This document shows positions 57,160 to 58,617 of a stretch of 64,000 bases of DNA, one piece after another. Position numbers and translations under genes: made by a program. The stretch lies in assembly GCF_988242995.1 (NCBI RefSeq), contig NZ_OZ547043.1; one strand, 5' to 3'. The notes beneath the pieces were generated by a model that was given only the letters and a program-made list of their open reading frames with translations, was not told the origin of the DNA and did no database searches. Position 1 is the first letter of the stretch. Every line of letters begins with the position of its first letter.

Positions 57160-58617
57160 ATGACAATTTCAAATTCGAATTTATTAAAACCGTTTATTAC
57201 TGGTACTGAGTTGCCACCTTTTAAAGAGAATGTTTTTTCTAAAACAGAAGAACAATTTAAAAAAAGCCCCCATGGCAAATTGCTTTTCATTTCCGGAAAT
57301 GAAAACTTAGTAAACATTTCAGCGGAAAAAATCGATGAAATAAAAAATAGCAAAGATTTCTTTTCAAATATTGTAAATATAATAATTTTACTCATTAAGC
57401 ATCCTGATAAAATTCTGCCCATTCTTCATGGTTGTCCTGCAGAGTCCATCGAACTCATTAAGAATGCGAAACGAACGGGGCAATGGTCATATGAGATGAC
57501 TGATAAGAACGGGCAGAGTATTGAAGTGTCCTATATTTTCACTGATACCATAGATGATAAATCTGATGGAAAATTATGCTTAAAAATCTGTAACCCCTGC
57601 AACCAAAATGATTCTAGTACACATGAATATAAAATAGATCATCAACAGTTGAAAAATCACATAAGGCAACTTGAGGAGTGGGCCCTTCTTGAAAAGTTTT
57701 ATGATAACAACGCTTATTATTCTAAACGTACAAAACAATTAGAGAAGAAAATTGCCGATGCGGGGTTTATAACAGGGAAGGTTAATGCCGATAACTTTAA
57801 TGTAAAAGAGTTTAAAGACGATATAGCCTCGATGCTTTGTGAACAGCCCCCCATGCGTACACACCAGATTTCTTCATTCGAATACTTATCTGCCGATAAA
57901 GTGCCCGATCTCTATAAGACAAATTTGAAAGACGCGCAGAGAGATCTGAAAACAACACCGGTTGACATCGATGGTGTTAGTCTAAAATCAAAAACTCGGG
58001 AAAAAATTGCGGAAAAAATTGCGAAAAAAACTGAGGAAGAAAATGCGGAAAAAATTGCGAAACAAAATGCGAAGACCATTGAGGAGAAGAATAGTGAAAA
58101 AAACAAGAAAGAAACAAATCCTGAGGATAATTTTGTCTTAAAATTCTCACCGGAAGAAATCAATGAGATGCTCCTGGATTACAGCGATGAAGAACAAAAA
58201 AAATTAAGACCTTTTTTCACTAGTGATCACATCTATTGTTTGTTTGATGCTTTTAGTCAGGGTTTGCATAATGTTGCTCGTAATGGCAGTCCACGGTATG
58301 CAGGTTTACTACGTCAAATAGCATCTAAGTCTGCGATATTACAAGATTTTGATCAACAATTGTTCTGGCGCACGTTTTCAGGAGGAGTCTTCCATCGACG
58401 TATCTCTGTGAACAGCGAGCCAGAAAAGACAGATGTATGGCGATTCAGTACACAATTTGATTTTCCACATATAAATGACAACGGAGAGTTGTCCAGAACG
58501 GTACTCATGTTCGAGGGGGTTGCTGAAAGCAACTTTAAAGATATCGCCAATCATTCCAGCGAATGTTTTTCTTACAGTTGTTATGCCGCTCCGCTGGATG
58601 CGAATGCTAAAAAATAG
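57160..58617 (+). CDS. hypothetical protein, low-GC accessory ORF of unknown function
   Basis: 485-aa ORF with GGAG RBS; visibly AT-rich; no signal peptide or TM; central K/E-rich repeats (EKIAEKIAKKTEEENAEKIAKQNAK) from tandem ~12-15-nt DNA repeats; not recognised; convergent with acpH. Confidence 0.6.
   Translation: MTISNSNLLKPFITGTELPPFKENVFSKTEEQFKKSPHGKLLFISGNENLVNISAEKIDEIKNSKDFFSNIVNIIILLIKHPDKILPILHGCPAESIELIKNAKRTGQWSYEMTDKNGQSIEVSYIFTDTIDDKSDGKLCLKICNPCNQNDSSTHEYKIDHQQLKNHIRQLEEWALLEKFYDNNAYYSKRTKQLEKKIADAGFITGKVNADNFNVKEFKDDIASMLCEQPPMRTHQISSFEYLSADKVPDLYKTNLKDAQRDLKTTPVDIDGVSLKSKTREKIAEKIAKKTEEENAEKIAKQNAKTIEEKNSEKNKKETNPEDNFVLKFSPEEINEMLLDYSDEEQKKLRPFFTSDHIYCLFDAFSQGLHNVARNGSPRYAGLLRQIASKSAILQDFDQQLFWRTFSGGVFHRRISVNSEPEKTDVWRFSTQFDFPHINDNGELSRTVLMFEGVAESNFKDIANHSSECFSYSCYAAPLDANAKK

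Follow-up and report, generated by a model that had tools for sequence, protein, structure and literature searches.

Why do some Escherichia coli genomes carry a long, AT-rich open reading frame (ORF) between malZ and acpH, and is it a gene that is being kept or a foreign sequence that has so far escaped disruption? The question is raised by a 64,000-nucleotide stretch of contig NZ_OZ547043.1 (assembly GCF_988242995.1; the window, hereafter), in which a frame of 485 codons occupies a small islet between these two core genes, at 57160-58617. An earlier sequence-only reading had described it as a strain-specific orphan that could be assigned to no family, missing from the K-12 arrangement and probably acquired horizontally. 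We find that the islet is best explained as an old, single-gene insertion, whose frame is kept open by selection while its sequence diversifies fast, and whose product would be an orphan protein (ORFan) restricted to E. coli, probably with a binding or interaction role; this reading, taken as a whole, has in our view an even chance of being correct.

If the frame is being maintained, selection should have left a footprint on it, and the comparison of alleles does show one. Eleven alleles spanning the range of identity among carriers were fetched regardless of their intactness, and all of them (11/11) have an intact ORF, of 461-489 aa, hence the decay in close relatives that could have discredited the gene is not seen. 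Their minimal substitutions amount to 151 nonsynonymous and 52 synonymous changes, a ratio of 2.9 compared to the 3.1 of neutrality. The Nei-Gojobori ratio of nonsynonymous to synonymous divergence (dN/dS) is 0.68, or 0.65 without one mosaic allele, and varies by region of the ORF between 0.46 and 1.12, with its maximum in aligned codons 361-400; in the same strains the values for malZ, acpH and queA are 0.05, 0.03 and 0.02. Random point mutation of this ORF would yield a stop in 4.2% of cases, which makes for about 8.9 expected nonsense changes in the approximately 203 substitutions, and none is observed (P ~1e-4; P = 1.5e-3 without the mosaic allele). Every indel is in-frame too, including those in a deeply divergent cassette in the middle of the gene. 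Across 18 alleles the first 13 residues do not vary, and these, together with the C-terminal 85 residues, are clearly more conserved than the remainder of the protein. As for the length of the frame, stops would make up ~6.9% of random codons at the composition of the ORF, from which simple arithmetic gives P ~1e-15 for 485 codons staying open by chance. Judging by these comparisons, the ORF is a genuine coding gene, constrained in its frame, its first 13 residues and its C-terminal domain, and fast-changing in the rest.

The distribution of the gene is that of a stable accessory element. When the segment and its flanks were compared by megablast with 5426 complete E. coli genomes, 5424 were matched; 1126 of these have the whole segment and the remaining ones have both flanks only, contiguous with one another. 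With the islet alone as query, it is found in 1127 of the 5426 genomes, always as one copy, on the chromosome and at 94-99.6% identity, and 1126 of the 1127 occurrences are near full length, with about 99% of carriers having an intact copy. The rare inactivated copies are those of H42 (NZ_CP022229.3, 3312676-3315114) and H90 (NZ_CP039837.1, O55:H7 strain USDA5905), where the lesions are one IS1 insertion inside the ORF and one deletion of the 5′ ~80% of the islet that reaches malZ. The earlier statement that malZ and acpH are adjacent in K-12 was right, because their stop codons are 4 nt apart in the K-12-like genomes with an empty site, and these K-12-type genomes are without the ORF, which is therefore not a property of all E. 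coli. What was called strain-specific is indeed strain-variable in its presence, but it is not confined to one strain, because O157:H7 has the gene as well (ECs_0454 of Sakai, annotated as a ‘hypothetical protein’); O55:H7, O145 and Shigella dysenteriae are also among the carriers.

Elsewhere the islet seems to have no relatives. None was found in phages by tblastn, and the same search of PLSDB gave no genuine plasmid match, the two apparent ones (NZ_CP134663.1 and NZ_CP141089.1; 4.90 and 4.94 Mb) being mislabelled chromosomes. An exact-peptide-word scan of GTDB representatives (one genome per species) found no relative in other bacteria. The position itself exists in only two states, empty or with this ORF; no other cargo occurs there in the 5424 genomes, and therefore it is no insertion hotspot.

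The composition of the islet is as unusual as the sequence-only reading had it. The block of ~1.67 kb has a GC content of 0.30-0.43 compared to 0.50-0.58 in its flanks, and contains the lowest-GC kilobase of the window. Relative to the 39 other window ORFs of at least 250 aa, the ORF is strongly atypical in GC (0.365 versus 0.538±0.024; z = -7.1) and in GC at third codon positions (GC3; 0.340 versus 0.586±0.040; z = -6.2), as well as in its codon adaptation index (CAI; z = -3.2, window-referenced), which fits a foreign origin. In these three respects, and in its presence or absence among strains, it agrees with the compositional definition of horizontally acquired DNA. The classical hallmarks of a genomic island are missing, exactly as had been noted earlier: the ORF list has no integrase or transposase at the islet, a tRNA scan of 50000..64000 found no tRNA that could serve as attachment site, and a repeat search found no flanking direct repeats. 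Nor does the ORF list offer a second credible ORF in the block. The 485-aa ORF starts with ATG, 7 nt downstream of a GGAG ribosome binding site (RBS; 57149-57152), and is annotated as a coding sequence (CDS) in every genome sampled; a protein identical to that of the window is already in public data as a hypothetical protein. On the opposite strand, a 120-aa ORF (57060-57422, minus strand; low-complexity and rich in Phe, Ser and Ile) overlaps the gene start and the leader, and is considered a side effect of the AT-richness.

How and when did the islet arrive? A comparison of 11 occupied with 5 empty sites shows that the left junction (...GAACTAA/AGCATCTG..., with the slash at the joint) is identical in 11/11 occupied loci and absent from the 5 empty sites, and that the right junction (...GAAGTT/TCAGAGCGCC) is common to all occupied ones. 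The empty sites all read CTAA-CGT(T/C)-TTATAA-CGCC, and the last two codons of acpH, TTA TAA in them, are CTC TGA in the window. It follows from this comparison that the islet takes the place of 10 nt and forms the last two codons of acpH anew. The identity of the junctions points to a single illegitimate event. That event is not recent. Synonymous divergence between islet alleles averages 0.065, with a maximum of 0.15, compared to 0.08-0.13 in the flanking malZ, acpH and queA; carriers, whose flanking genes are as diverse as the species, show differences of up to 3.7% in malZ. Since the alleles have diverged about as much as the flanking genes, and the flanks of carriers are diverse, the polymorphism is old and is found with varied flanking sequences, presumably as a result of homologous recombination in these. 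With no relative seen in the species representatives, the phages or genuine plasmids, the most parsimonious assumption is that E. coli gained the islet within its own lineage. The earlier suspicion of horizontal acquisition is supported by the atypical composition and the strain-variable presence, with the qualification that the acquisition is old.

Variation within the gene is of two kinds. Protein lengths range overall from 461 to 493 aa, mostly in steps of 4 aa, and the gaps behind these steps are confined to a tract of 12-bp tandem repeats, whose degenerate copies reach over 57980..58111, whose copy number varies between strains, and which encodes a K/E-rich helical tract of (E/K)KIA type (aa ~276-322). 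The other kind is the exchange of a central cassette. In one allele (that of locus L012) the cassette differs from those of the other alleles by a synonymous divergence (dS) of 0.45-0.54 and a nonsynonymous one (dN) of 0.30, whilst elsewhere the difference is below 5%. This ‘type-2’ cassette is found in 31 of the 1127 islet genomes and has no repeat, yet stays in frame and keeps the motifs LLDYSDE, LRPFF, CLFDAF, GSPRY and LQDFDQQLFWRTF. The ORF also contains two homopolymer runs (A7 at 57259-57265 and A8 at 58196-58203), and there are truncated public versions of the protein (P0121-P0139; ‘partial’ entries) that start at the internal Met113 or end early, some of which may go back to slippage frameshifts and not to the ends of contigs.

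The protein itself gives few clues. It is hydrophilic (55.7 kDa; grand average of hydropathy -0.68; isoelectric point 6.0), and the earlier observation that it has neither a transmembrane segment nor a signal peptide holds: the highest Kyte-Doolittle mean over 19 residues is 1.56, in a segment that includes K, H, P and D, and the N-terminus of the 485-aa protein does not resemble a signal peptide. The two Cys-containing motifs remarked on earlier are where they were said to be (HGCPAES at aa 90-96 and CLKICNPCNQ at aa 140-149), as is the K/E-rich repeat tract. C140-x3-C144-x2-C147 is invariant in 18 alleles, with the spacing of the CX3CX2C of radical SAM enzymes; a radical SAM identity was nonetheless rejected, with neither PF04055 nor any other radical SAM family of Pfam matching even at E <= 10. 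An internal duplication of an alpha/beta module was likewise tested and rejected.

Homology searches isolate the protein even further, in agreement with the earlier failure to assign it to a family. Pfam gives only low-complexity matches at E >= 0.015, NCBIfam and PHROGs give none, and the Protein Data Bank (PDB), searched by sequence and by profile, returns coiled-coil noise only; the weak library matches all fall on the K/E-rich helical tract. In a word-indexed search of 5.8 billion proteins, the best 120 matches are all from E. coli or Shigella, at identities of at least 89%. An exhaustive phmmer search of 1.84 billion representatives of 50%-identity clusters found one full-length cluster, from E. 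coli, and its fragments, at identities of at least 80%. That search also gave a PKD-like repeat match (P0140; E = 6e-4, 26-29% identity, aa 102-158), marginal in its E-value, inflated by three repeat copies and without support from Pfam, which is probably a chance match. As far as these searches reach, the protein is an ORFan restricted to E. coli and Shigella.

Structure prediction does not compensate for this. With an alignment of 18 alleles, AlphaFold2 reached a mean predicted local distance difference test score (pLDDT) of 35.8 for the full length, and of 47.8 for the C-terminal 165 aa with the divergent allele included; Foldseek comparison of the C-terminal model with the PDB gave nothing below E = 0.07 and template modelling (TM) scores of at most 0.29, and none of these results is interpretable. 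A layout can be proposed only tentatively from the models, with helices in aa ~1-105, four strands that include the Cys motif in aa 107-160, long helices that include the repeat tract in aa 161-410, and a strand-rich C-terminus in aa 416-479.

Upstream of the gene, the islet brings a non-coding leader, which is less variable than the ORF (mean pairwise distance 1.6% in 11 alleles) and holds a stem-loop kept in all alleles. The minimum free energy of this stem-loop is -33.8 kcal/mol (z = -4.46; 0/200 shuffles as stable), its only Rfam match is a sub-threshold one to a miRNA model, and it is likely to act as an islet-borne transcription terminator of malZ. A promoter scan found no sigma-70-like promoter on the plus strand of the leader, and the 20 nt between the convergent stops of the ORF and acpH hold no terminator-like structure. 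Since the gene is AT-rich and has no consensus promoter, it may be silent or tightly regulated in laboratory conditions.

How could a frame be kept open in a protein that changes so freely? Under the explanation we prefer, an illegitimate insertion of ~1.67 kb (or its exact reversal) occurred once, precisely between the stops of malZ and acpH, replacing 10 nt, rebuilding the end of acpH and placing a hairpin after malZ; the resulting presence/absence polymorphism has segregated since then on diverse flanking backgrounds with its junctions unchanged. Selection keeps the frame open, and the amino-acid sequence changes at a near-neutral rate. The product may be a soluble, non-enzymatic protein of ~56 kDa, in which the variable K/E-rich helical spacer would join an alpha/beta region, predicted at the N-terminus, to a conserved alpha/beta domain at the C-terminus. 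It would bind a partner that is itself variable (i.e., a host, a phage or another accessory system), and this variability, we propose, accounts for an open frame in a diversifying sequence; specificity would be determined by the central cassette, and the helical spacer would possibly help to tune recognition.

Several points weigh against this explanation. A dN/dS near 0.7 and a near-neutral 151:52 are also the pattern of a slowly decaying gene. The domain architecture is built on low-confidence models (pLDDT 36 and 48), and a binding protein with a specificity cassette is something we only infer. The outgroup scan used to polarize the event relied on exact peptide words, and loss is the alternative direction. 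There is, in addition, no direct evidence of expression: ECs0454 is not found in searchable paper text, and the accessible part of a Sakai transcriptome/proteome supplement lists ECs0453 and ECs0456, and not ECs0454.

The plainest alternative is a non-functional relic, i.e., a foreign ORF that drifts neutrally and has so far stayed undisrupted. The same near-neutral substitution figures, the want of homologues, the poor codon adaptation, the missing consensus promoter and expression evidence, and the occasional IS1 insertion or partial deletion are all as it predicts. It would have to account, however, for the zero nonsense changes where about nine are expected, for indels that are in-frame even in the divergent cassette, for near-full-length copies in all but one of the occurrences, for a persistence comparable to the coalescence time of the flanking core alleles, and for the stronger conservation of both ends of the protein, and we consider it distinctly unlikely. 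The presence/absence polymorphism, low GC, fast evolution and exchangeable cassette of the gene are typical of genes involved in conflict. But if it were a single-gene anti-phage defence protein of the abortive-infection type, PADLOC-DB v2 should have given more than a low-complexity match to Cas7e over the K/E-rich tract (E = 0.016), and the protein has no nuclease, ATPase, TIR, SIR2 or other effector domain; its site, with no alternative cargo in 5424 genomes, is no defence hotspot, and no copy of the gene was found on phages, plasmids or mobile elements. We rate this possibility as very unlikely. Still less can be said for an islet whose primary effect is in cis and whose protein is secondary, an idea that we regard as highly improbable. 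Here malZ transcription would end at the islet hairpin, and the ORF would replace malZ as antisense partner of acpH. The pair is reported to form a convergent excludon in MG1655 (PMC12288877), and this, along with the strong hairpin after malZ and the convergent 20-nt spacing without terminator, implies that the islet should change the antisense partner of acpH; the leader is, moreover, more conserved than the ORF. Yet an open frame of 485 codons is left unexplained in this way, and 79% of strains manage without the islet.

The remaining alternative specifies a destination for the protein. It could be a type III secretion substrate, originally of the second type III secretion system of E. coli (ETT2) and maybe usable by that of the enterocyte effacement locus (LEE) in enterohaemorrhagic E. 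coli (EHEC), with an N-terminal signal that delivers it and a subsequent action on a host target. Of its first 25 residues, 44% are Ser, Thr, Asn or Pro, a share above that of all 39 window ORFs of the reference set (19±7%), although the enrichment is modest relative to the 24.5% of the whole protein; acidic residues are missing ahead of position 17, and the invariance of the first 13 residues would suit a signal. Its low-GC single-gene islet without mobility genes resembles that of espY3 (ECs_0472), 13.6 kb away in Sakai; the serotypes that carry it (O157:H7, O55:H7 and O145, with S. dysenteriae) are in keeping with such a role, and many effectors are also ORFans beyond the reach of AlphaFold2. 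Against it, neither Pfam nor NCBIfam gives a match to an effector family, and a relationship to EspY3 was rejected (best BLASTP E = 0.56).

Genome counts, combined by inclusion-exclusion with lineage relatedness left in, cut both ways. The ETT2 ATPase gene eivC is found in 1304 genomes, and in 1510 together with the islet in union, so that ~915-920 have both, ~206 the islet only, ~384 eivC only and 3916 neither; this is a strong co-occurrence (odds ratio ~45), but eivC allele classes track islet presence, meaning that the association is confounded by lineage, and ~18% of carriers are without eivC. For the LEE gene escN (697 genomes; union with the islet 1481; both 342), 70% of carriers (784/1126) are without it and 355 of the 697 LEE-positive genomes are without the islet, for which reason a LEE-specific effector was rejected as general explanation. 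The ETT2 of Sakai is degraded whilst ECs_0454 is intact there, and the secretome of a strain with intact ETT2 contained no secreted effector (PMC6030553). In the Sakai cluster, the annotation splits epaR and eivJ into two CDSs each (epaR1/epaR2 and eivJ1/eivJ2; L018:34092-34859 and 36733-37608), and because of these splits it looks mutationally disrupted. On balance we hold a type III substrate to be unlikely. A wider version, in which the protein is a new-fold, E. coli-specific interaction factor (a type III substrate of the ETT2/LEE lineages or some other conflict protein) with cassette and spacer under diversifying selection against a target that varies in host or phage, strikes us as doubtful, to the same degree as the relic. 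The preferred explanation, i.e., an old islet with a selected, fast-diversifying ORFan, accommodates both the open frame and the free change of the sequence.

Whichever of these is right, databases already list the sequence, as a hypothetical protein to which the searchable literature attaches no function, name or publication; queries for ECs0454, Z0502, WP_000155946 and neighbouring locus tags returned nothing relevant in searchable text. If functional, it amounts to a 56-kDa product in approximately one fifth of E. coli strains, among them O157:H7, O55:H7, O145 and major extraintestinal lineages, which neither sequence search nor structure prediction classifies. An open frame, near-neutral change, an exchangeable cassette and repeat-length variation form the pattern expected of proteins in molecular conflict, and the co-distribution with ETT2 (not corrected for lineage) is a testable lead for a system without known substrates. 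Were the new-fold interaction factor true, it would be a hitherto undescribed determinant of virulence or niche in lineages of phylogroup D/E type, O157:H7 among them; were the gene a drifting relic, it would be one more ORFan of the pan-genome, useful mainly as a stable lineage marker at malZ/acpH.

Features of the islet and its flanks, in window coordinates.
Feature	Position	Strand	Remarks
malZ, left flanking core gene, outside the islet	55155..56972	+	annotated in all related loci
Islet left arm, non-coding leader, 187 nt	56973..57159	+	malZ stop to ORF start; holds hairpin and RBS
Stem-loop, 11-bp outer and 5-bp inner stem, with a U-rich stretch after it	57006..57053	+	folding; inverted repeat I2
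Gene of the 485-aa ORFan protein	57160..58617	+	ATG start; WP_000155946-type ‘hypothetical protein’ group
Central variable cassette, aligned codons ~262-397	57943..58350 (approximate)	+	exchanged for a highly divergent ‘type-2’ version in some strains
12-bp tandem repeat, consensus GGAAAAAATTGC, ~6 copies	57999..58071	+	Tandem Repeats Finder: period 12, 6.1 copies, 80% matches
Islet right junction	58618..58643		20-nt spacer from ORF stop to acpH stop, and rebuilt last two acpH codons
acpH, right flanking core gene, convergent with the ORF	58638..59219	-	annotated in all related loci

The genes beyond acpH are queA, tgt, yajC and secD. The spacer between acpH and queA, of 92 nt in the window (59220-59311), is 218-295 nt long in three islet strains (L004:4748-4965, L006:4736-5030 and L007:4761-4978), where it contains an inserted element with ...CACTCACCCCAGTCACTTACTTAATGTAAGCTCCTGGGGA..., presumably an ERIC/IRU repeat; the element of L006 has a further piece of 77 nt inside. 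Two other ORFs of the window attracted attention. One, of 982 aa (24216-27164, plus strand), has a signal-peptide-like N-terminus, an autotransporter-like C-terminus ending in ...VGVKYTW and, with 0.47, the second lowest GC among the long window ORFs; it sits at what we take to be the site of the IS-disrupted yaiT pseudogene of K-12, and appears intact here. The other, of 326 aa (11760-12740, plus strand), looks by eye like a transposase of the IS110 family, lies between a yaiL-like ORF and frmB/frmA-like genes, and is probably a strain-specific insertion sequence (IS) copy.

In spite of its isolation, the gene can be set beside some better-known systems. Its closest counterpart is ECs_0454 of Sakai (e.g., WP_000155946.1; UniProt A0A246NT24-type), which is at the same locus with 92-94% protein identity and differs only by allelic changes and repeat copy number. 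Radical SAM enzymes share the Cys spacing, but here the motif falls, in a low-confidence model, in a predicted beta-strand region and not in a TIM-barrel context. The islet resembles the espY3-type backbone effector islets of EHEC in being a single low-GC gene between core genes, in the same neighbourhood, strain-variable and without mobility genes; EspY3 and the ORFan, however, have no sequence similarity, and no WEX5F-type motif is seen in the latter by eye. ETT2 and the islet are both accessory elements that are ancient and lineage-structured, and eivC is present in 82% of islet carriers; the two loci are nevertheless physically unlinked (~3.2 Mb apart in Sakai), their co-occurrence is not phylogeny-corrected, and ETT2 has no proven secreted effectors (PMC6030553). 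The gene is best placed, uncharacterised as it is, in the well-known class of lineage-specific orphan genes on small islets. Like these it is AT-rich, has no homologues and a high dN/dS, yields poor structure predictions and is distributed patchily within the species, whilst it differs from the class in general by being unusually long (485 aa), old and stable, at one site and from one event.

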